DNA of 32,000 bases from an uncultured archaeon (GCA_964426185.1 CAYRPF010000002.1:1387-33386); one strand, 5' to 3'. Positions 1 to 26,288 are shown, counted from the stretch's first letter. The notes: generated by a model not told the origin, from the sequence alone. Numbers and translations: made by a program.

Positions 1-1469
1 AATCTACAAAGGGAACAACCACCTACTCCTTTGGCAATTTACAGATAAAAGACAGCCGAACGAAATCTAAGGCGATTTCATATTCTTCTGATACTTCATA
101 TTCTCCTGAGTCTGAAAACTGCCCCCTAGCTGAGGAAGAAGTGGTAGAAGATGCCATTGTAAACATTTTCGGCAAAGCTACCTTTCATAGAGATCAATTG
201 GAGCTGGAAATTAAATCGATCCGTTCATCTTCTATGGATTTTGAAGGAATTTTGCAGCAGCGCAGTAAACCCCGCCGTACCGAATTCAGCATTCCTTCGC
301 AGCGATATCAAGCGATGAAAAAGAGATTTATTAAGATCGCACAAAGAATCAGAAGGGCTATTATGGATCAACAACCTATTTTAATTCGACATCACAATGA
401 TGCCGATGGAATCTGCGCTGGATTGGCAGTGGAACAAGCCATTTTGCATGAAATGGAACGCAATAATATCGATCCAAAAAACAAAATATACCGCAGTCCC
501 AGTGTTTCGCCTTTTTATGATCAAATCGATCTATTTAGAGATGTTAGCAAATTTAATCGTTATACTAATCATTTCGGTGATAAATCGCCTCTGATTCTTC
601 TATTGGATACTGGCTCTACTCCCGAAAATTTGTTTGCCCTTCAAGTGCTCAAAAGTTTCAAATATGAATGCATTGTTGTGGATCATCACAATCCTGGTAA
701 TTTAGAGGATGGAAAAAGTGTTATTTGCAATTATCTGGAAGACCATCTTAATCCTTATCTATTTGGTTATGATTCCCAAACAAGCGGTGGAATGTTGGGA
801 TATGAACTTGCTCGATTCATTGATGAAGATTTTGAAGCACCCTTATATCCTGCTGTTGCAGGTGTAGGTGATCGATGTGAAGGTGAAGAAATTGACAAGT
901 GTATAGAAAAATCTGGTAAAAATCGAGAAGAATTAATGAATATGGCAAAAGTTATTGATTATTTAGCCTTTCACTTCAGGTTTGAAGATGGAGAAGGGGT
1001 TTATGAACAGGTATTTACCAATGATAAAATGGTGAACTTGGTGGCTCGTGAAGTAGATCGATATTTTGAAGAAACCTTGAACCGAATTTTACCCCATGTT
1101 CAAATTGAAGATTTTTCCGCGGTTAAGTTTGTTTCATTAAATTTAGAACAATTTACTCAACGGGGAAAATACCCTCCGCCTGGGAAAACCCTTGGATTAA
1201 TTCATGATTACATTGCGGGTCAGAGTGACCTTAAACCCGTTTTTACCATGGGCTTTTTTGGTGATGGAATCATTATAAGGGCGACTGAGGCGATTCTTCC
1301 CGTTCCTGAACTGTTAGTCGACTTACAGAAGAAATTTCCATTGGCTGCTGTAGAAGGAGGGGGACATGAGCAAGCAGGTTCAATTAAATTCTTGGAATTA
1401 TATGGGGAACAAATTTTGAGGGAAATAAAAGCAAGATTAGAAAATATTTCCTTTACGGATAATAAATAA
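1..1469 (+). CDS. Archaeal RecJ-like DHH-family phosphoesterase/exonuclease with N-terminal OB-fold (5'-truncated)
   Basis: DHH motifs RHHNDADG, LLDTGS, VVDHH and C-terminal DHHA1 GGGH. The frame is open from base 3 (STKGTTTYSFGNLQIKD...), so the real start lies upstream of the window, not at the GTG at 141. Segment IVNIFGKATFHRDQLELEI is OB-fold-like. Confidence 0.85.
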   Translation, partial: STKGTTTYSFGNLQIKDSRTKSKAISYSSDTSYSPESENCPLAEEEVVEDAIVNIFGKATFHRDQLELEIKSIRSSSMDFEGILQQRSKPRRTEFSIPSQRYQAMKKRFIKIAQRIRRAIMDQQPILIRHHNDADGICAGLAVEQAILHEMERNNIDPKNKIYRSPSVSPFYDQIDLFRDVSKFNRYTNHFGDKSPLILLLDTGSTPENLFALQVLKSFKYECIVVDHHNPGNLEDGKSVICNYLEDHLNPYLFGYDSQTSGGMLGYELARFIDEDFEAPLYPAVAGVGDRCEGEEIDKCIEKSGKNREELMNMAKVIDYLAFHFRFEDGEGVYEQVFTNDKMVNLVAREVDRYFEETLNRILPHVQIEDFSAVKFVSLNLEQFTQRGKYPPPGKTLGLIHDYIAGQSDLKPVFTMGFFGDGIIIRATEAILPVPELLVDLQKKFPLAAVEGGGHEQAGSIKFLELYGEQILREIKARLENISFTDNK

Positions 1470-1660
1470 AGCGAAGCAAACATCGCTTGATTCAAGACAT
1501 GTGGTAGTTTATTCAAGTAAAATTTTAATTTTATGAAATAATCTATCAATAATTTATTTTCCGAAGTTGGGATTATGGTTCCGAATTCGCATTATAGCGA
1601 AATACATAAAAATCCGAAATTACGAATTATTCCTTAGCAGTCAACAGAATTAACTATAGG

Positions 1661-2920
1661 GTGAAAATACTGGATATTAATTTGTGGCTAAATTGGATAG
1701 GAACAATTGTTATTGCAATCATTCTTTCAAACTTCTTCACCACCAGTATTAAGAAAAAATACTATAATCCCTTTTTACTCGTTTCAGTTTTCTTTTCTTT
1801 TATTGGTATCATTTTTGAAAATATAATGTATCACTTAGAAGAAAATGGGATTCAATCTATGGTTAATTTATTTTATGCACTTCATATCACAAGTTTTTGC
1901 ATATATTTCTTTTATATGTATTTATTTTTGAATTCATTAATACATAGTCGCCCGTCGGTTCCAAGTTTAGTGTTTATATCGGGGCTAATTGCAATTATTT
2001 TTATAGGATCTTGGGTACATTATCTTTATTATCCTGAATTATCTTATGATGATGGTTCAATTCCAGTTGCCCTTGCACGGTTAGCCTTTGATCTCACGGG
2101 AGTATACGTTTTTGGAGTTCAAGGTATGGTAATTTATTTTCGTATTTATCAAAAAGTGAAAGAGAAATTCGCATTATTATTTATTTTTACTCAATTTTCA
2201 ATGATGAGCGGATATTTCTTCCGAATTTTCCGGGAAATCAATAATTTGGCAAGCTTTTATAATCCTACTCAAATTAATCCTGTTTTTATTAATGGTCTCT
2301 CCCCAATAATTATATTTTTAAACATATTTGGTATGATAGGTGCAATGGTTTATATTGTGCTTTACAGTATAAATATCAAATACATTGTTCGTCTACCGGA
2401 TGACATATATTTCTTAGGGATTTACACCATTTCAGGCCTACAAATATATAAAGTTAATCTCAAAGCCTCTAAACAGCGTTATGTGGAAGATCGCCTTCTT
2501 AGTGGAATTTTCTCGGCCTTTTATAGTATTTTTAAAACATTATTTCAATCCCACCATCCCATTGAGATTATCCGTAGTCAAGATTTTTCACTTCTATTTA
2601 TTGCTCAAGAAAAAATAATGGTGGTTGCCGCTACAGAGCAACCTACTTATACTTTGGAACACGCCATGCGGCAATTTTTCAAACAGTTTACGGAAGAGTT
2701 TCCTAGGATTTATGAGAAGAATTTTCTCAATTTGGATGGAATTGAAAGGGTAGAGCAAATTCTGCATGAAAGATTTCCCTTTTTGGAAATTGAAAAATCT
2801 CCTTTTGATTCAGCTTATTCCACTCAAGCAGAGTTATCAACTGAACAAAATGGAAAAAAAGACTCCCAAATTCCAGTAACACCTGATCTTGTGGAAGATG
2901 TTCAAAATCTTAGCAAATAG
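1661..2920 (+). CDS. 7TM membrane protein fused to a C-terminal longin/roadblock-like domain
   Basis: Seven hydrophobic segments in aa ~8-237, then DIYFLGIYTISGLQIY...LLSGIFSAFYSIF...IEIIRSQDFSLLF...IMVVAATE...AMRQFFKQFTEEF, a beta-beta-alpha-beta-beta-beta-alpha pattern typical of longin domains. Confidence 0.7.
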   Translation: MKILDINLWLNWIGTIVIAIILSNFFTTSIKKKYYNPFLLVSVFFSFIGIIFENIMYHLEENGIQSMVNLFYALHITSFCIYFFYMYLFLNSLIHSRPSVPSLVFISGLIAIIFIGSWVHYLYYPELSYDDGSIPVALARLAFDLTGVYVFGVQGMVIYFRIYQKVKEKFALLFIFTQFSMMSGYFFRIFREINNLASFYNPTQINPVFINGLSPIIIFLNIFGMIGAMVYIVLYSINIKYIVRLPDDIYFLGIYTISGLQIYKVNLKASKQRYVEDRLLSGIFSAFYSIFKTLFQSHHPIEIIRSQDFSLLFIAQEKIMVVAATEQPTYTLEHAMRQFFKQFTEEFPRIYEKNFLNLDGIERVEQILHERFPFLEIEKSPFDSAYSTQAELSTEQNGKKDSQIPVTPDLVEDVQNLSK

Positions 2921-2970
2921 AAAAAGAAAAAAAAGAAAAATAAAAAAAGGGACGCGTCAGTAATAAAAAA
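2921..2970 (-). terminator. Oligo(T) tracts (minus strand) in a convergent intergenic gap, probable archaeal terminator
   Basis: Several A5-A8 runs on + (T runs on -) downstream of the stop of ORF 3002..4009. Confidence 0.4.
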
Positions 2971-3001
2971 GAACCAGAATATTATTCTTTCTCATCAATT
3001 T

Positions 3002-4009
3002 TTAGTCAAATTCTAAAATATCTCCGATATAATAGATTGTTTCATCAATATTTAATTCCATTTGCTGATTCGATGCAACAAAAACTCCGTGGTTGATTCC
3101 TTGTAAAATTTTATCCAAATACGCCAGGAACATTTCAACTATTTCGCGTAGCCTAACCATATCTCCAATTCGGTACGCCATATTCATTATATTGATCATA
3201 CCTGGAATAAAATCTCTGTTTAGAATAAGTGACTCCACTGCACCATTCGCAGTTTCAAATGGTTGTGGAATATCACACACTTGAAATAATAACTTGGAAA
3301 CAAATAACGAAGATTTCAACCCCCGAATAATGTAATTAATTTTACTTACTGAAGTTCTCTGCCGAAATGAGTGTAACTCATATAAAACCCTAAAATTTAC
3401 GTCATCATATGTATTAAGATATTTTTTCTTATACGTGGGCTCCCATACAATGGTTTTGAAATATTTTAACATTCTTTCGTAGTATTCAGCGAACAAGATG
3501 CTATATAGCGATTTATCTTCCTTTCTGACATATGAGGGAAAGTATTTTAAATTATAGTGCTTCCTTCTTAAAGTGTGGAAGAAATTCCGAAGAATTAATA
3601 TCTTCACTTTGAATCGATCGACTGCATAGAAGAGAGGAATTCGGGATTCTGTATACGCATTTACATTTCCATATCGAAGTTCATTTCTTCTATTGGGTCC
3701 CAAGCGTGATGCAATCGGGACTAACCTATGAACAACAATGAAAAATCGCGCCAAAATTTTAGAAAATAGATGGTTTTCATCTAACTCTAACTCTTCCATA
3801 ATTTTTTCCATATCTAGCGATTTGAAGGAGATATTAGAGAGATATTCGTAATTACGGAGGGCTAGAATACCTGAAGTCATCAGTTCTGCTTCCAATATGG
3901 AACGAAATGGAATGTAAACTCTGTTTAAATCCGTTGTATAACTATTTTGTGAAATAATATCAGGATAAGTCCCCACTCCAGTCACATCCAACCGATGGCT
4001 CATATTCAT
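3002..4009 (-). CDS. Hypothetical protein (soluble, probably helical, Tyr/Arg-rich)
   Basis: 335-aa ORF with ATG and upstream AAGGAA; no motif recognised. Confidence 0.75.
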   Translation of the reverse strand: MNMSHRLDVTGVGTYPDIISQNSYTTDLNRVYIPFRSILEAELMTSGILALRNYEYLSNISFKSLDMEKIMEELELDENHLFSKILARFFIVVHRLVPIASRLGPNRRNELRYGNVNAYTESRIPLFYAVDRFKVKILILRNFFHTLRRKHYNLKYFPSYVRKEDKSLYSILFAEYYERMLKYFKTIVWEPTYKKKYLNTYDDVNFRVLYELHSFRQRTSVSKINYIIRGLKSSLFVSKLLFQVCDIPQPFETANGAVESLILNRDFIPGMINIMNMAYRIGDMVRLREIVEMFLAYLDKILQGINHGVFVASNQQMELNIDETIYYIGDILEFD

Positions 4010-4293
4010 GCTTGTTTCCTTCAGATAATGTTTAACGTTTCAAGTAACCATTTTGTTATTTGCCATGCAAAATTGCAATTCAATAATTATTCTTAGTACT
4101 TGAAGTTAATAAAAATATGGAAAAAATAATTTGAAATAGTGAATATTTTATCTAATGCAGTAAAAAATTTATCTGACAGTTATTTTTCACACTTCAATTG
4201 CTAAATTTGTAAGTTTTTCACTTTAATTCTGAAAAAGGGCTAGTTTTTATCTTTATCGCTCCATATAATTATTAAATAGTGGAAGCACCAATC

Positions 4294-4311
4294 CAAGATA
4301 ATCTTTATATA
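4294..4311 (+). promoter_or_regulatory. Putative BRE/TATA box for the 4363 gene
   Basis: CAAGATAATC-TTTATATA (TATA at 4304-4311), about 50 nt before the ATG; strong RBS GAGGAGG at 4346-4352. Confidence 0.45.
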
Positions 4312-4362
4312 TGTTTAATCAGAGTATAAATATCCTCTTAATTTTGAGGAGGGGATTTTCTA

Positions 4363-5091
4363 ATGGCCGTAACACCTATTGCGATGACTCTTGGTATAAC
4401 TTCAATAATTTTATTGATTTTAGGATGGACATATTCTGTCCTATTTTGGATTAAATATATTTACGTAAGAAAAATCTTGGTTCCCCTTGTTGCTTGGGTT
4501 GCATTTTGCTGCGGAATGTTTTATTTAGGACCTACAGTGAGTTTTATTTCACTCTTAACAACGGGAAATAATATTGCTCCGAGAACCTATTATCTATTAT
4601 CCTATATTACTCTACCTTTAGCGGGGATGGGTATTACGCAGATGTCCTTATCTGTATTCAATCGAAAACTACAGAAGCGGGCATTTGTTATATATCTGTT
4701 AATGTCACTTCTTTACTATATCTTTGTGATTGGGTTCACAGATCAACAGTACAAAGCTGAAGATGTGGGACCAAGTGAATTATTAGATATTAGCCATAAT
4801 AATGTCTCACTAATAGTTACAGGTTTTACGCTATTTACTGTATTAGTTGTAAGTAGCGGTGGTTTTTTCTTACTTGCCCGGAAATTAAAGAAGAATAATA
4901 TGCCCAAGAAAGATATTCGAAAAACATTAATGATTGCAATTGGTTGGCTATTTTTCGTGGTTTCAGGTATCATGGATGCCATGATTCCTCCCTTATCGAT
5001 CATCTTCATTCTCTTTGTGCGGATTTTGATGATAATTGCCTTTAACTTTATATATTTGGGATTTTGGAAGAAACCCGTTAGAATGAAGTAA
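4363..5091 (+). CDS. Stand-alone 7TM membrane protein
   Basis: Seven hydrophobic helices, basic cytoplasmic loops (RKLQKR, RKLKKNNMPKKDIRK), no soluble C-terminal domain, strong RBS. Confidence 0.75.
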   Translation: MAVTPIAMTLGITSIILLILGWTYSVLFWIKYIYVRKILVPLVAWVAFCCGMFYLGPTVSFISLLTTGNNIAPRTYYLLSYITLPLAGMGITQMSLSVFNRKLQKRAFVIYLLMSLLYYIFVIGFTDQQYKAEDVGPSELLDISHNNVSLIVTGFTLFTVLVVSSGGFFLLARKLKKNNMPKKDIRKTLMIAIGWLFFVVSGIMDAMIPPLSIIFILFVRILMIIAFNFIYLGFWKKPVRMK

Positions 5092-5333
5092 ATTTGGGAG
5101 GTATTTTTCACTATTTTTTTTATCAAGTAAGACAATCCATCTGCTGCATGCTTAGAATTGCTAGAATTTTTAGGAATGTGCCAAAATCACCGAAATCTTA
5201 AATATTTTGCAATATTGAATTGTTTATGGTGAATTTGGGGATGAATGAAGAATAAAATTATACGATTTTAAAATTTAAATTCCATCATAAATGTTTTATC
5301 ATAAGCATAATCAACTTATAGATGCGCATTAAA

Positions 5334-6263
5334 ATGTCACAACAACCTGTCTTTAAATCTCATCACCCAGATGGATTCGGTAGTTTTGCCGGATTGGCCC
5401 TTAAAGAGTCTGGTGTTCCATATTTGCTTCAAGAAGCTGACATTCTCATCCAAGGCATTCCCTACGAAGCGGCTACTAGTGGAAAAAAGGGGACCTCCTT
5501 CGCTCCCCATGCCCTTCGGGCGATCTCAAAAGATTTCCAAGTCATTTCTCGTCGGGGAGTGGATTTGACAAAGTTAAAAATCTGTGATGTCGGCAATATT
5601 CCGATTTTTCCAGTAGAAGGTGCACAAACCCGGGATTCCATTACTTCTGCAATGCAAGCTTTGCTCAATGCTACATCTTCGCCTATCATTTCCATTGGGG
5701 GGGACCATTCGGTCACCTTTCCGTTGGTCAAAGCCTTTGATCCCTCTCAAAGCTTGGGGATCATTTGGTTAGATGCCCACCGCGACCTCCAAGACGTGTT
5801 CTTGGGTTCCCCTTTTTCCCACGGGACTTCACTTCGGCGAATATCTGAGCTACCAAATGTCGACCCTGAAAATATCTGTCTTATTGGCACTCGATACATG
5901 GATCCACTCGAACAGGTATTTATAGAAAAAACGCAAATTCAAGAACTGACTGCTCCTATGCTTGAAGACGCTCCTAACTACCGGAGTCTTGTCCAAAAAA
6001 CCATTTCGGAAATTGAGGATCGGGTTGACCATTTGTATATCTCGATTGATATCGACGTCCTTGATCCGGCTTTTGCACCAGGGACTGGGACTCCTGTGGC
6101 TGGGGGTTTAACCAGCGCCCAATTGTTGAATATTGTCAGTGACCTTTCCGTACCAGTCAGAGCCTTTGATATTGTTGAAGTATCGCCCCCATTAGATCCC
6201 TCGGGGATAACAAGTAAGGTACAGATGGCGCTCCTTACGGAAATTTTTGCCAAATATGCATAG
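5334..6263 (+). CDS. speB: Ureohydrolase (agmatinase/arginase family)
   Basis: Binuclear metal motifs GGDHS, DAHRD, SHGT, SIDIDVLDPAFAPGTGTP, DIVEVSP. Start at ATG 5334 or 5322. Substrate uncertain. Confidence 0.85.
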   Translation: MSQQPVFKSHHPDGFGSFAGLALKESGVPYLLQEADILIQGIPYEAATSGKKGTSFAPHALRAISKDFQVISRRGVDLTKLKICDVGNIPIFPVEGAQTRDSITSAMQALLNATSSPIISIGGDHSVTFPLVKAFDPSQSLGIIWLDAHRDLQDVFLGSPFSHGTSLRRISELPNVDPENICLIGTRYMDPLEQVFIEKTQIQELTAPMLEDAPNYRSLVQKTISEIEDRVDHLYISIDIDVLDPAFAPGTGTPVAGGLTSAQLLNIVSDLSVPVRAFDIVEVSPPLDPSGITSKVQMALLTEIFAKYA

Positions 6264-6284
6264 TAAAATTATTTTTTTCTTTTA

Positions 6285-7571
6285 TCAATTTTCTTTAATT
6301 CGTGCTTGAATCACTTCAGCCACCTTAAAACTTGTCGCTATCGCAACACCCAAACCTGTTCCATCCCTAACTTCGTCTTCTTCACTGAGATCTGTGGAAA
6401 ATAGATAATTTGAGGCGCCAACCACGAAAATATTTGATTTTTGAGTGGTGGATATAATTTCATAATTAGAATCAATCGAATCAGGAAAATCTAATTCCAA
6501 CTGGTGAAATTTATTGCCTAATTCATACGATTCAGAGAACAATCCTTGAGTAAATAAAGATCCAACTGCGATTACAATATATTTAGTTTTGAGTTTTTGA
6601 GTATTACCATGAGAATCTACTAAATGCACAATCCATTCTGAATCATTTTTAGTTAAATCGACCATTTTTGTCTTTTTTGCAAATGGTATAGCAAGAACTT
6701 GAATTTTCCTTTGAAATTGGCGGAGAAAACGTTCAGCCATAATCGATGGTGTCAAAGCCACCGTTTCAAAACATTCTATTCCTAAATGAGAACTCAAATG
6801 TGTAAAAATTGTGGGACAATTCTCAATACCCATAATTGGGGGAAATAATACTAAGGATATCTTTTTCCAATCAATTTCAGGAAATTTCGTGGCAAAATTC
6901 GACTTAATTAGAGTTGCTAAAGGAGACATATGAATTGCTTTTTCATCGAAAAATTTAGCAATTGTTTTTACGGAAATTACCTGCTTTTTCATGTTATCCA
7001 TCAAATCTGCATTCATTTGCTGAAATAATTGCCTAAGGCTAACAGTAAGAACTAAAAATTGTCCTTGAAATTTTTCTTCTAAACCTTTAGCTATCAAAGC
7101 CATGGGTGAATTTGTAAATTCTTGAAAATTAATTAATAAACACACCGATTCTTCCGTAAGTTTGCCAAAATTTGAAAAAATAGTATTCCACTTACCAGTT
7201 GTCAGCTTTGTATTTCCTAATGATGTAAGAACATGTCCATTGCAAACCTCTGCATTAGAATCTTGAAAAGAAGAAAACGTGGGAAAGCTTTCATAGAATT
7301 CTTGTAGGCTTTTTTGTAGGATTTCCATACTGATATGAGAATAGGGGTGAGCTGGTAAAGATACTTGAAATTTTGCCAATTCGAGAATTAGGTTGTCTCC
7401 CGGGTAATTGAGCACATCAACCGTCCCCAACCAAAAATTAGAAGCTCCGTTACCGGCATCGATTATTTTGCAATTGATTCCCTTTTTAGCTAACAATCGG
7501 GCTGTATTCATTCCTGCAAAACCACCCCCGATAATTGCTACATCTACATCTTGATTTGAGGTATCGTTCAA
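6285..7571 (-). CDS. glpB: Anaerobic glycerol-3-phosphate dehydrogenase subunit B (divergent)
   Basis: FAD motif DVAIIGGGFAG, GTVDVL, HPYSHI, C-terminal GTGLGVAIAT; ATGA overlap with glpA. Confidence 0.8.
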   Translation of the reverse strand: MNDTSNQDVDVAIIGGGFAGMNTARLLAKKGINCKIIDAGNGASNFWLGTVDVLNYPGDNLILELAKFQVSLPAHPYSHISMEILQKSLQEFYESFPTFSSFQDSNAEVCNGHVLTSLGNTKLTTGKWNTIFSNFGKLTEESVCLLINFQEFTNSPMALIAKGLEEKFQGQFLVLTVSLRQLFQQMNADLMDNMKKQVISVKTIAKFFDEKAIHMSPLATLIKSNFATKFPEIDWKKISLVLFPPIMGIENCPTIFTHLSSHLGIECFETVALTPSIMAERFLRQFQRKIQVLAIPFAKKTKMVDLTKNDSEWIVHLVDSHGNTQKLKTKYIVIAVGSLFTQGLFSESYELGNKFHQLELDFPDSIDSNYEIISTTQKSNIFVVGASNYLFSTDLSEEDEVRDGTGLGVAIATSFKVAEVIQARIKEN

Positions 7572-9202
7572 GAAAGATTTCCTCCTAAAATATACATATA
7601 TTTAGCCAGTTTAATTTGCCGTCGCTGTGCTTCATCAACCAAATCTTCTGTTTTCCATCTTTTTTCTAACGCTTCTTTTAATTCTTCCATGATCTTGGTA
7701 TGAGATTTTTGAGACCACAGCAATTCTAATTCTGCTACTTTAAAATAGCAGAATTGACCTTGACAAACCCCCATACCTTGGCGCGTTCGGCGCCGATAAT
7801 CATCAATTTTCTTCACAAATAGGTTTTCTCTTACCCAAGACAATTCAGATTCAGAAACTTGTTCACATTCGCATACAATTTTTGATTGAGTGTCAACTAT
7901 CGCGGTATCCAAGCATTTTGCGCATAATTCACCCATTTCTTGGATGAATGATCCCCATTTTAAACTTAAATCTGCAGCGTGTCGTGGATCAACTTGAAAT
8001 AATTTTTGCAATTCTTCTTTTGTGAAAGGACTATCTGCACCAGGGAGTAATTTTTCCTTAGTTAAACATGGTTTGTAATTTCCTAACTTTTGACATATGA
8101 GATCACCCACTTTTTCAGCTATTAAGCGATAAGTAGTGAGTTTTCCTCCAAAAACCGTTATTAAACCTGAAAAACCTTCGCTGGAATAATCAATAATGGA
8201 AAATTGACGGGAAGAAGTATAAGGTGATTCTTTTCTTTTAATTAAAGGACGTACTCCTGTATAATATCGAATTAGGCGAGTAGATTTTAAAACTGGGATT
8301 AATTCTTCACCCAAATGCTGCAAAGTATCAATTTCTTCATATGTCACCTTCGGCTGATCTAGTTCCCTATCTGGGATTGGGATGGCATTTGTTCCCACAA
8401 TGACTGATTGATGGCTGGGAACAATGATATCGCCTGTACTTGGAGGTTGTAGTCTGTTAATTACACTTGAAACCAAACGATTTTTAAAAATAAGGAGGGT
8501 TCCCCTTGTGGGTGCAATTTCCAACGGATGTTCGGGTTTTATATCTCGTTCAAGGATTGAAGCCCAAGGACCGGTTGCATTTATTATCCATTTTGCATAT
8601 ACATTGAAAAATTCATCGGATAATAAGTCATGCACCCGTATTCCGACAATTTCCTTCTCAGTAAGAATAAGATGTTCTACTTTACTGTAAGTGTGAATTT
8701 CCGCACCATGATTCTTGGCATCGAGTGCGTTATAAAGGGTTAAAAGGAAAGGGTCAACATAGGCATCATTCGTTCGAAAAACTTTACGAATGTTAGGATT
8801 ACAATTGGGTTCATGCTGTAGAAATTCTTTTATTGGAATTTCTTCGATATCTACGCCTGCATTTTGGCACATCTCGGGAAATTTCTTTCCGTAGTTTAGA
8901 TCTTCATCGGTTATTCCCACAAAATAGCCCCCAACGGAATCAATTATATGGGCTGCAGTTCGTCGTAAAATAAGGTTTTCTTGAGCGCATTCTTTGGCGA
9001 CTTCTGGATCAGTTGAAACATATCTCGCCCCCGAATGTAATAGTCCATGACATCGCCCCGTAGTTCCTTCTGCCAAGTCCCTTTTTTCAAATAATGCAAT
9101 TCTTATACCGCGTAAGGCTAAATCTCGGGCGATTCCCGTTCCACAGATGCCACCTCCCACAATGATTGCATCAAAATCTTGAATTAATTGCATTGGGTTC
9201 AC
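7568..9202 (-). CDS. glpA: Anaerobic glycerol-3-phosphate dehydrogenase subunit A
   Basis: IVGGGICG, GTTGRCHGLLHSGARY, GVRPL, GGKLTTYRL, C-terminal BFD-like [2Fe-2S] motif VCECE...RRRTRQGMGVCQGQFC. Confidence 0.92.
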   Translation of the reverse strand: MNPMQLIQDFDAIIVGGGICGTGIARDLALRGIRIALFEKRDLAEGTTGRCHGLLHSGARYVSTDPEVAKECAQENLILRRTAAHIIDSVGGYFVGITDEDLNYGKKFPEMCQNAGVDIEEIPIKEFLQHEPNCNPNIRKVFRTNDAYVDPFLLTLYNALDAKNHGAEIHTYSKVEHLILTEKEIVGIRVHDLLSDEFFNVYAKWIINATGPWASILERDIKPEHPLEIAPTRGTLLIFKNRLVSSVINRLQPPSTGDIIVPSHQSVIVGTNAIPIPDRELDQPKVTYEEIDTLQHLGEELIPVLKSTRLIRYYTGVRPLIKRKESPYTSSRQFSIIDYSSEGFSGLITVFGGKLTTYRLIAEKVGDLICQKLGNYKPCLTKEKLLPGADSPFTKEELQKLFQVDPRHAADLSLKWGSFIQEMGELCAKCLDTAIVDTQSKIVCECEQVSESELSWVRENLFVKKIDDYRRRTRQGMGVCQGQFCYFKVAELELLWSQKSHTKIMEELKEALEKRWKTEDLVDEAQRRQIKLAKYMYILGGNLS

Positions 9203-9311
9203 TTACTATTTACTCTTGTTACTATATATTTCTTCGCGCATAGGAATTATTCAGTGTTTGGTTAATGAGAGAATAATTTTTAAAGATTTATGCTAATCAT
9301 AATTCATACAG

Positions 9312-9905
9312 ATGAAAATGATTGAAACACCATATATCGAAGTTGAAATTATCAGTAGTCAAGACCCAAAACAAAAAATTTTAGATATGTTAAAGCAAAG
9401 GGCAAAAAAAAATCATCATGTGAAATCTCATTTTAAGGGTACTCCCGAGAATCCTATTTTAAGGGTTGATTATGACTCCCTTGAGCAATTTAAGGCCGGA
9501 TATAATCGTGATCGTTTAATATACGAAAATTTCATTAAATTCATTAATCTACAAGAAGTTTCATTCAGTAAGATCCCTCTGCGCAAGATCAGAATAGAAG
9601 ATGATGATATTTATCTAATTATGAAGTACCGAACGAATTGTAAGGAACCTATTCGAAATAATTATAATTTTACTTTTCGCATCATTGAATTAATTGGTTT
9701 AGGGGCTTCATTTGAAGAAGTTCAAGATGGATTTATTCTTTTTTATCAAACTAAAGAGGATTTTAAGATTGGATTGATGGATTTGCTTAATCTGGAAGAA
9801 GTAAGGACATATCTTGATTCTATTGGGATGTTAATCCCCTCTATTGAACGCTTTCTAAATCAGATCCAAGATAAAACTTTTAAAAAACCTCCAAAGTTGA
9901 CATGA
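9312..9905 (+). CDS. Hypothetical protein, possibly two tandem alpha/beta units
   Basis: 197-aa ORF divergent from glpA; 3' end overlaps the methyltransferase 3' end by 26 bp. Confidence 0.7.
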   Translation: MKMIETPYIEVEIISSQDPKQKILDMLKQRAKKNHHVKSHFKGTPENPILRVDYDSLEQFKAGYNRDRLIYENFIKFINLQEVSFSKIPLRKIRIEDDDIYLIMKYRTNCKEPIRNNYNFTFRIIELIGLGASFEEVQDGFILFYQTKEDFKIGLMDLLNLEEVRTYLDSIGMLIPSIERFLNQIQDKTFKKPPKLT

Positions 9906-25196: not shown

Positions 25197-26288
25197 TTAT
25201 TTTTCCTTTTCTTTTTCCTTCATATTAGTTAATTCAAACGGAAGTAAATTAAAGAGAACTTCGAGTTTAGTAGAAAAAGTGGAATATTCCGCTAAATCAT
25301 CTAATTTTTCGGAAAGTAAATGGCTATAATTTTGAATAAATTGAGTTAATATAAATCGGATCGTCTTTTCAATCGAAAAAAAAGTTCTATTAACTAATAA
25401 TATCGCGCCTAGATTTCGATTTTTATATTTTTGATATACTAAAACAAATTTCTTATCTCCAAAATCAAGCATTTTAATTTTTGATTTTGCTTGGGCGATT
25501 TTCTGCTGAATAATTGTAGAAGCATAAAAACTGTATTCATACAGTGGAGAATTGTCCTCAATTCTGAATAAATCCATTCCACTTTCTATATCGATAATAG
25601 AGAAATGGAATATTTTCACCGAATGTAGGAAAATTGCCTTCGGATAATGTAAATAAGCAATTGTACTCATAGAAAAACCAAAGATCATAAATATCTCACG
25701 TAGATATATGATATCTAATGATTTTACAAAACCTTCGCCTAAAAATGCTATGATAATTCCAAGAAAGATGAAACCATTGTATATTTTCTTTTTCCTACTG
25801 TTTTGATTATCATATGATCGAAAATCTCTGGGAATTATGATCACTAAAGAAAGTCCTAAGAAAATGTTAATAAAAATAGTCATAAATGGATTGAAATGTA
25901 ATATCCAATGATATTTTTCGGAAAAATCAATTACCCATGGAGAATAAATACAATTTCCAATTAAAAAAGAAGAATAGAGTGAAATGAAGAGGAAAATTCT
26001 TGATATTTTTTCTGCTCGAATTGATTCCACAAAGTACACCAAAAGGGGAATACTAATGAACCAAAAAATGACACGCGCTTCCATTAAAATGCTTACATAT
26101 TCAATTTCAGAAGGGGGAATAAAAAACGTGATGAAATAAAAGAAGTCATTTAGAAAGAATAGGATGAAAAAAAAGGTCAAAATTTGACTGGGACCGAACA
26201 TTGTTTTCCTATAATGTATTAAAATTCCGTATATCAGAAAAATTTCAATCAATAATATAAATACAAGTAGAAAAAGATATAGATCCAC
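25197..26288 (-). CDS. 7TM membrane protein fused to a C-terminal longin-like domain
   Basis: Seven hydrophobic helices (aa ~3-213), then KIFHFSIIDIESGMDLF...KIKMLDFGDKKFVLV...LGAILLVN...IRFILTQFIQNY. Confidence 0.7.
   Translation of the reverse strand: MDLYLFLLVFILLIEIFLIYGILIHYRKTMFGPSQILTFFFILFFLNDFFYFITFFIPPSEIEYVSILMEARVIFWFISIPLLVYFVESIRAEKISRIFLFISLYSSFLIGNCIYSPWVIDFSEKYHWILHFNPFMTIFINIFLGLSLVIIIPRDFRSYDNQNSRKKKIYNGFIFLGIIIAFLGEGFVKSLDIIYLREIFMIFGFSMSTIAYLHYPKAIFLHSVKIFHFSIIDIESGMDLFRIEDNSPLYEYSFYASTIIQQKIAQAKSKIKMLDFGDKKFVLVYQKYKNRNLGAILLVNRTFFSIEKTIRFILTQFIQNYSHLLSEKLDDLAEYSTFSTKLEVLFNLLPFELTNMKEKEKEK

Follow-up and report, generated by a model that had tools for sequence, protein, structure and literature searches.

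A widespread and unannotated Asgard protein family joining a seven-helix membrane domain to a cytoplasmic longin domain

The gene described here is located at positions 1661..2920 on the plus strand of a stretch of 32,000 nucleotides (G000:C2:1387-33386; hereafter the window, from the first letter of which all positions are counted) from an uncultured Asgard archaeon of the Promethearchaeota/Lokiarchaeia type, the genome of which comprises 3.26 Mb in 155 contigs with ~35% G+C. Its product of 419 amino acid residues (aa) consists of seven transmembrane (TM) helices followed by a longin domain and a disordered tail, and this 7TM-longin architecture is real, conserved, Asgard-wide and unannotated. 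A sensor in the membrane, with a longin tail that docks a small GTPase there or regulates it, is a plausible, if tentative, reading of the protein, coupling to small GTPases appearing to be its best-supported output. The architecture finds no mention in the Asgard literature searchable as text, the asCOG supplementary tables (Liu et al.) being outside that search; a 2026 preprint lists '7TM proteins' among the families of eukaryotic signature proteins from earlier catalogues, which may or may not correspond to the present family. Known from Asgard archaea are soluble longins (Klinger 2016, as cited in PMC4917890) as well as fusions of a longin with a GTPase and with TRAPPC3 (Tran 2024, PMC10933270).

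Results

The seven-helix membrane domain

The reading frame begins with GTG and is closed by the stop codon at 2918-2920, and 13 close homologues align with it over the full length; the homologues with names come from Candidatus Harpocratesius, Promethearchaeota and Thorarchaeota. There is no start codon upstream of 1661 within the open frame. Since the orthologues conserve TM1 and TM2, including the motif NWxGT, the long form of 419 aa is the correct one; at least one public record (Atlas) begins at Met56 only and thus hides these two helices.

The membrane domain, with its N-terminus outside, covers aa 1-237 (1661..2371, plus strand), as judged from AlphaFold2, the positive-inside rule and a structural comparison by VIA-align. 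In the AlphaFold2 model, based on the alignment of 13 orthologues, it forms seven long helices with a predicted local distance difference test score (pLDDT) of ~80-96 throughout the block: TM1 (aa 2-31; 1664-1753), TM2 (aa 37-61; 1769-1843), TM3 (aa 65-92; 1853-1936), TM4 (aa 100-123; 1958-2029), TM5 (aa 134-166; 2060-2158), TM6 (aa 169-200; 2165-2260) and TM7 (aa 207-237, NPVFINGLSPIIIFLNIFGMIGAMVYIVLYS; 2279-2371). The number of helices is therefore exactly seven, as had been claimed by an earlier reading of the DNA made from the sequence alone (the sequence-only reading); in the full-length model they are followed by a beta/alpha domain at low confidence and then by a disordered tail. Concerning the topology, the mean content of Lys+Arg in 102 diverse family members is 3.37, 1.60 and 2.63 in loops 1, 3 and 5, respectively, compared to only 0.25, 0.53 and 0.17 in loops 2, 4 and 6, from which it follows that the N-terminus is outside, the C-terminus inside and the longin domain cytoplasmic.

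When the bundle was compared by VIA-align with 48,161 PDB representatives, its 50 best matches were a designed soluble fold resembling G protein-coupled receptors (GPCRs), GPCRs of several classes and the GPCR-like domain of LYCHOS/GPR155 (198-235 residues aligned, root mean square deviation 3.9-5.2), all with Z scores of 10.9-13.8, which should be read with the tool's own caution that helical bundles can reach Z ~13 without homology. As modelled, the bundle thus has the same arrangement of seven helices as GPCRs, but a common ancestry with eukaryotic GPCRs is not established, because scores below ~13 may reflect the common bundle arrangement alone; no Pfam GPCR family matched the studied protein or any of the 102 members. 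The GPCR-like concept of the sequence-only reading is defensible for the shape of the bundle and for the logic of a variable outer and a conserved inner side. It should be added that a retinal-binding microbial rhodopsin was also considered and is ruled out, since TM7 contains no Lys; no rhodopsin is present among the 50 best structural matches.

Conservation across the membrane is markedly asymmetric. The inner halves of the helices have an entropy of 2.68 against 3.16 for the outer halves (Mann-Whitney p 1.8e-9), the low-entropy positions number 17 in the inner and two in the outer halves, and the cytoplasmic loops (2.42) are likewise better conserved than the outer ones (3.3). Further conserved sites are found at the cytoplasmic ends of the helices, namely Arg (loop 1), Glu (end of TM3; Asn in the protein studied here), E168 (loop 5) and Y235 (end of TM7). 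A variable outside combined with a conserved inside and a rigid joint to the next domain is what is expected of an output-coupled receptor rather than of a plain anchor. Fold, topology and conservation together give the receptor-like reading a good footing.

The linker, the longin domain and the tail

The joint itself, i.e. the linker between TM7 and the longin domain (aa 238-248, NIKYIVRLPDD; 2372..2404, plus strand), with the family consensus N-x-D-Y-x-Y-R-L-P, surpasses every other segment of the protein in conservation: its mean column entropy is 1.9, whereas the longin domain has 2.77 and the TM region 2.95. The positions best kept across the members are P246 (91%), Y241 (79%) and R244 (78%).

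The cytoplasmic domain (aa 249-380; 2405..2800, plus strand) was assigned to the longins from the AlphaFold2 model, Foldseek and VIA-align. It is composed of b1 (249-256), b2 (261-267), a1 (277-294), b3-b5 (303-325), a2 (330-346) and a3 (363-371) followed by F372-P373; G259 in the b1-b2 hairpin as well as both F372 and P373 after a3 are conserved in 98% of members. Modelled alone by AlphaFold2 with 148 family sequences, the segment aa 240-386 reached a pLDDT of 90.2 and a predicted template modelling score of 0.84 and exhibited the order b1-b2-a1-b3-b4-b5-a2-a3 without any N-terminal helix (strands E10-17 and E22-28, helix H38-55, strands E64-66, E71-77 and E80-86, helices H91-107 and H124-132 in the numbering of the model). 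Foldseek returned 33 PDB matches at E<=1e-3, nearly all of them longins—AP sigma and mu, Mon1-Ccz1, Fuzzy-Inturned, TRAPP Bet5/Trs23 and zeta/delta-COP—with Sec22b coming next (E 2e-3). The 50 best PDB representatives found by VIA-align were exclusively longins (Z 7.4-11.4) or roadblock domains (Z 7.3-9.7). The highest-scoring longins (Z 9-11.4), including Fuzzy, VAMP7, AP-mu, synbindin, Sec22, Bet5, SRX and Mon1/Ccz1, aligned over 105-127 residues up to about model residue 135-138, the best of all being the first longin of Fuzzy (7q3d_C, Z 11.4).

The roadblock matches cover 91-107 residues, about model residues 5-113, and end before a3. The roadblock order starts with an N-terminal helix (a-b-b-a-b-b-b) and lacks the C-terminal a3, whereas the present model has b1-b2 at its beginning and a2-a3 at its end; taking into account also the lower Z scores, the roadblock/LC7 fold was rejected. 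As far as the model goes, the C-terminal domain is thus a true longin and not a roadblock fold, in line with the longin-like domain of the sequence-only reading. The similarity is hardly visible in the sequence: the protein has no Pfam match at E<=1 and hence no membership in Longin, Sybindin or Fuz_longin_1, and searching the PDB sequences with the profile of the orthologues yielded no match at E<=10. Among the 102 members, sub-threshold Pfam matches for the tail part were to Fuz_longin_1 in eight (best E 1.3e-4) and to Sybindin in four. Helix a1 carries the motif L-x-S-G-x-x-x-A; small-residue motifs of this kind are expected on tightly packing helices, and it may be read as consistent with the canonical longin dimer.

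The remaining residues form a C-terminal tail (aa 381-419; 2801..2917, plus strand), the disorder of which, also claimed by the sequence-only reading, is reflected in a pLDDT of 28-36. Most orthologues either lack this part (from aa ~381 on) or cannot be aligned with it, and the tail should therefore be considered real but not conserved.

Family, paralogues and relatives

An exhaustive profile search over 1.84 billion representatives revealed 218 family clusters at E<=1e-3, mostly of 355-385 aa and matched end to end. Both the 7TM domain and the longin are carried by 126 of the 150 best representatives, and the other 24 have the longin part only; most of these are fragments, and in many of them the longin is preceded by one to three hydrophobic segments. 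None of the 150 contains the 7TM part without the longin, nor was any other output found on the 7TM module there. One representative (P0163) combines 12 TM-like segments with a longin. Family matches are present in 298 of the 301 sampled Asgard genomes, where full-length copies are distributed over many families; it is common for one genome to have several, and some of them stand in tandem. Despite this spread, no Pfam or NCBIfam model covers the protein studied here, and its neighbours in the ESM Atlas are only unnamed Promethearchaeota clusters, all of them labelled 'hypothetical protein'.

At least five full-length copies are encoded in the present genome (the studied one, C44, C15, C22 and 25197-26288). 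The last of these, situated in the same window (25197..26288, minus strand; 363 aa), is a distant 7TM-longin paralogue without the motifs YRLP and FPF. Its kinship, proposed by the sequence-only reading, is borne out by hhalign against the deep family profile (probability 98.1%, E 8.6e-14, 317 columns) and by the family hidden Markov model (HMM), which it matches with E 2.3e-8 over HMM positions 11-376; its long N-terminus is backed by the homologue P0015. The relation is visible with the deep family profile only, since a direct BLASTP comparison of the two window proteins gave nothing meaningful and hhalign of their shallow alignments a probability of 0.6%. It should be pointed out here that public gene calls shorten the N-termini of both of them (by window 1661-1825 and 26085-26288, respectively), the cluster representative of the paralogue having 295 aa instead of the full 363; as this shortening removes TM1-TM2, both resemble proteins with five TM helices.

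A stand-alone 7TM protein (4363-5091), listed by the sequence-only reading beside the paralogue, is indeed encoded in the window, but no relation to the family is detectable, its hhalign probability being 2.7% with no match to the TM HMM. Elsewhere in the genome, a 7TM-only protein of 254 aa (G000:C4:31123-31884, L019) matches the family TM profile with E 7e-4 and HisKA_7TM with 26.9 bits, the cut-off being 28.6, and judging from these profile scores it may bridge the 7TM-longin family to the prokaryotic 7TM sensors. Regarding the 102 members, sub-threshold matches of the 7TM part were found to 7TMR-DISM_7TM in four and to HisKA_7TM in one. The studied protein itself matches neither 7TMR-DISM_7TM (PF07695) nor HisKA_7TM (PF16927), and the genome search gave nothing above the cut-off; both similarities are thus putative leads and not membership.

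Link to small GTPases

The genome encodes ~51 open reading frames (ORFs) of the Ras superfamily of GTPases. The HMM of the present longin domain alone, run on the genome, matched 31 ORFs; for four of these a GTPase ORF is found no more than 250 bp away, with ~0.6 expected by chance according to our own estimate. In one of the 31 (L013, G000:C21:752-1660) the longin (residues 20-122) is fused directly to an Arf/Ras-like GTPase (residues 141-270), and in another (L007) a longin of the same subfamily is fused to V4R, a relative of TRAPPC3/Bet3. Members of the subfamily are also fused to an MFS transporter (L006), to CBS (L004) and to HisKA with a receiver (L011), and they form the C-terminus of five TPR proteins (L012, L061-L063, L065), the longin subfamily being a promiscuous module in this genome. 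Upstream of the L007 longin + V4R, at 12 nt, there is an ORF of 117 aa matching TM1-TM3 of the family; the two (G000:C18:41183-42399) may represent either one gene that has been split or frameshifted, or a variant of the type 3TM-longin-V4R.

Several observations weigh against a coupling of the 7TM-longin proteins to GTPases. The window does encode two GTPases, as the sequence-only reading stated, but they are not linked to the gene at 1661-2920: a distance of 11.8 kb separates it from the nearest GTPase ORF (both being about 10.5-12 kb off), with genes for RecJ-like, agmatinase, glycerol-3-phosphate dehydrogenase and methyltransferase proteins in between. An operon link is thus not supported for this copy, which in the absence of a linked GTPase names no partner, and it is weak family-wide, too. 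Of the five copies in this genome, C44 is the only one to have a GTPase at 2.5 kb or less. Forty loci of twenty kb taken from other Asgard genomes, 766 kb altogether, contain 47 7TM-longin genes and 17 GTPase ORFs; the resulting density of one GTPase per 45 kb barely exceeds that of one per 64 kb in this genome, and a GTPase lies within 600 bp of only five of the 47 genes, three of the five being orthologous loci. This agrees with the report that Asgard GTPase genes are rarely in operons with longin or roadblock genes (PMC10933270). The fusions to MFS, CBS, TPR and HisKA-receiver proteins imply, moreover, that the longin could serve more generally in regulation or dimerisation. Longins also have non-GTPase roles in general, such as in SNAREs and coat subunits. 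On the part of the membrane domain, finally, the GPCR-like Z scores are within the range reachable by generic helical bundles.

As to the surveyed loci, three from related genomes (L028, L030 and L046 from G074, G026 and G086) exhibit two tandem 7TM-longin genes followed by a third copy, with a small GTPase gene ~500 bp upstream of the latter on the same strand.

Gene neighbourhood

The two GTPases of the window are a Gtr1/RagA-like protein and a Ras/Rab-like GTPase with a zinc ribbon; a homologue of GPP34/GOLPH3 is encoded there as well. The gene at 1661-2920 is placed tail-to-tail, at 82 bp, with that of a 335-aa protein (3002-4009, minus strand), for which there is no Pfam or NCBIfam family and which is kept in a same-genus genome with 74% identity and in synteny. 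The syntenic orthologue of the 7TM-longin protein in the closed same-genus genome shares only 53% identity, the neighbours sharing 63-84%, and this faster divergence counts in favour of the receptor-like reading. The order RecJ-like, 7TM-longin, 335-aa protein, 7TM, glpB and glpA is preserved between window 141-9905 and the 20-kb stretch L022 (G210:C1:23400-43399), the latter having ~5.6 kb extra between the RecJ-like and 7TM-longin genes; within this stretch, tblastn gave no match to the agmatinase-like gene.

Discussion

Comparison with known systems

Concerning the longin domain, the closest known systems are the eukaryotic platforms Fuzzy-Inturned (CPLANE), Mon1-Ccz1, BLOC-3 and TRAPP Bet5/Trs23 (sybindin), which have the same fold and the same strand order, with Z scores of 11.4 for 7q3d_C, 10.3 for both synbindin (2zmv) and Bet5 (3cue_C) and 8.7-9.5 for Mon1/Ccz1. 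The present family differs from them in staying below the Pfam thresholds, in having a single longin instead of a tri-longin or multi-subunit complex, and in that its longin is covalently joined to a 7TM domain. With prokaryotic 7TM receptors such as 7TMR-DISM and the HisKA_7TM histidine kinases it shares the layout of a single polypeptide with the 7TM input at the N-terminus and an output domain in the cytoplasm, the output being, however, a longin and not a kinase, cyclase or HD-GYP. Eukaryotic GPCRs and LYCHOS/GPR155 resemble it in seven helices with the N-terminus outside and the C-terminus inside, in the same arrangement of the bundle and in the variable outer and conserved inner side; LYCHOS, in addition, reports to a longin-containing GTPase regulator, GATOR1. 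In contrast to GPCRs, there is no sequence similarity, the presumed transducer domain is fused and not separate, and no heterotrimeric G protein is involved. With regard to Asgard archaea themselves, the soluble longin 8yqg_B has the same fold as the tail (Z 8.0), and the longin-GTPase and longin-TRAPPC3 fusions are soluble proteins, the longin-Arf-like GTPase and longin-V4R fusions of this genome matching the same HMM.

Proposed mode of action and alternative readings

The protein would act as a one-component membrane sensor of an Asgard-wide family. The GPCR-shaped bundle, with the N-terminus outside and the C-terminus inside, would receive a ligand or a physical signal by its variable outer half, and the change would be relayed by the conserved cytoplasmic face and the rigid conserved linker (Y-x-YRLP) to the fused longin. 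The longin, probably as a homodimer or paired with another longin/roadblock protein, may form a platform docking a small GTPase, longin/roadblock dimers being known as GTPase platforms (PMC10933270). The docked GTPase could then have its nucleotide state or its location altered at the membrane, whether by a guanine nucleotide exchange factor (GEF) activity, by a GTPase-activating protein (GAP) activity or by plain recruitment. The GEF activity proposed by the sequence-only reading can be inferred only, since the link to GTPases is indirect and no GTPase is near the gene. Since GAPs, effectors, scaffolds and autoinhibitory modules are found among longin domains as well, GEF is one of several possible outputs. 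Should the tail act on a GTPase at all, the role of a GEF or platform is nevertheless somewhat more likely than that of a GAP because of Fuzzy as the best match, the weak signals of Fuz_longin_1 and Sybindin, and the presence of L, I or V after G259. A more specific version, in which a signal from outside the cell, taken up by the GPCR-fold bundle, directly switches the exchange or recruiting activity of the longin on an Arf-, Rab- or Rag-like GTPase—a ligand-gated GTPase regulator, maybe with an ancestry shared with GPCRs or with the LYCHOS-GATOR link—appears decidedly unlikely at present.

The tentatively favoured sensor acting on a small GTPase has to be weighed against three other explanations. 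The longin might have nothing to do with GTPases and serve generically for regulation or oligomerisation, attached to a 7TM part that is a transporter, a channel, an enzyme or a sensor with other partners. This is rather unlikely, although the inconsistent GTPase neighbourhood, the MFS, CBS, HisKA-receiver and TPR fusions listed above, P0163 with its 12 TM-like segments, and the longin fusions with two-component domains reported by Liu et al. all speak for it; the same subfamily is, however, fused to a GTPase and adjoins GTPases above chance in this genome, the longins closest to it in structure, and by the weak sequence signals, are those of GTPase platforms, and the top structural neighbours of the 7TM part are all receptors or the designed receptor-like fold, with no transporter among them. 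Alternatively, the seven helices might do nothing but tether the longin platform as a constitutive anchor or scaffold, no ligand being sensed, so that the platform would recruit GTPases lacking lipid anchors or other longin/roadblock proteins, in analogy to LAMTOR1 for Ragulator and the SRX domain of SR-alpha for SR-beta. Such an anchor would fit the solid longin fold, the matches of which include SRX (5ck3, Z 9.8) and Ragulator subunits, the zinc ribbon that the Rab-like GTPase of the window has in place of a prenylation tail, and the fact that no ligand-binding motif was identified in the protein. A plain tether, on the other hand, needs neither seven helices in the GPCR-type arrangement nor many diverged paralogues per genome and tandem arrays, nor the strict TM7-longin linker and the contrast between the conserved cytoplasmic and the variable outer face, which leaves this explanation an unlikely one.

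Least probable of all, and very much so, is a GAP-type longin similar to FLCN, NPRL2 and SMCR8, i.e. a tail that would make a Rag- or Arf-like GTPase hydrolyse its GTP faster and so switch it off. FLCN/SMCR8-type longins do exist in Asgard genomes, and longins of this type are recognised by a GP motif just before or at b2 together with a catalytic arginine finger (PMC12290439). The invariant G259 occupies the site of that motif in the b1-b2 hairpin, and the structural matches include the GATOR1/FLCN chains 8fw5_G (Z 7.6) and 6ulg_N (Z 7.4). The GP motif is absent, however, position 260 being L, I or V and Pro occurring at 261 in only 20 of 96 members, and the longin domain contains no near-invariant Arg, R244 being located in the linker before b1; GAP longins, moreover, score below those of Fuzzy, VAMP7, AP-mu and TRAPP. 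With neither the GP motif nor the Arg finger found among the members, assignment to the GAP-type longins was rejected.

Significance for Asgard archaea

Asgard archaea possess dozens of small GTPases, for which few native regulators or sites of membrane attachment have been identified. The family described here joins a receptor-shaped membrane domain to a fold that eukaryotes use to dock or switch Rab, Rag and Arf GTPases, and it therefore offers clonable candidates for the recruitment or control of GTPases at the membrane. The idea is directly testable through the soluble longin domain (~147 aa) and the cultured Lokiarchaeia. The family bears on the origin of the logic connecting a 7TM receptor to a G protein and on the rise of eukaryotic trafficking regulators; were the ligand-gated regulator true, a fused form of '7TM receptor to G protein' signalling would have been present in Asgard archaea before eukaryotes.

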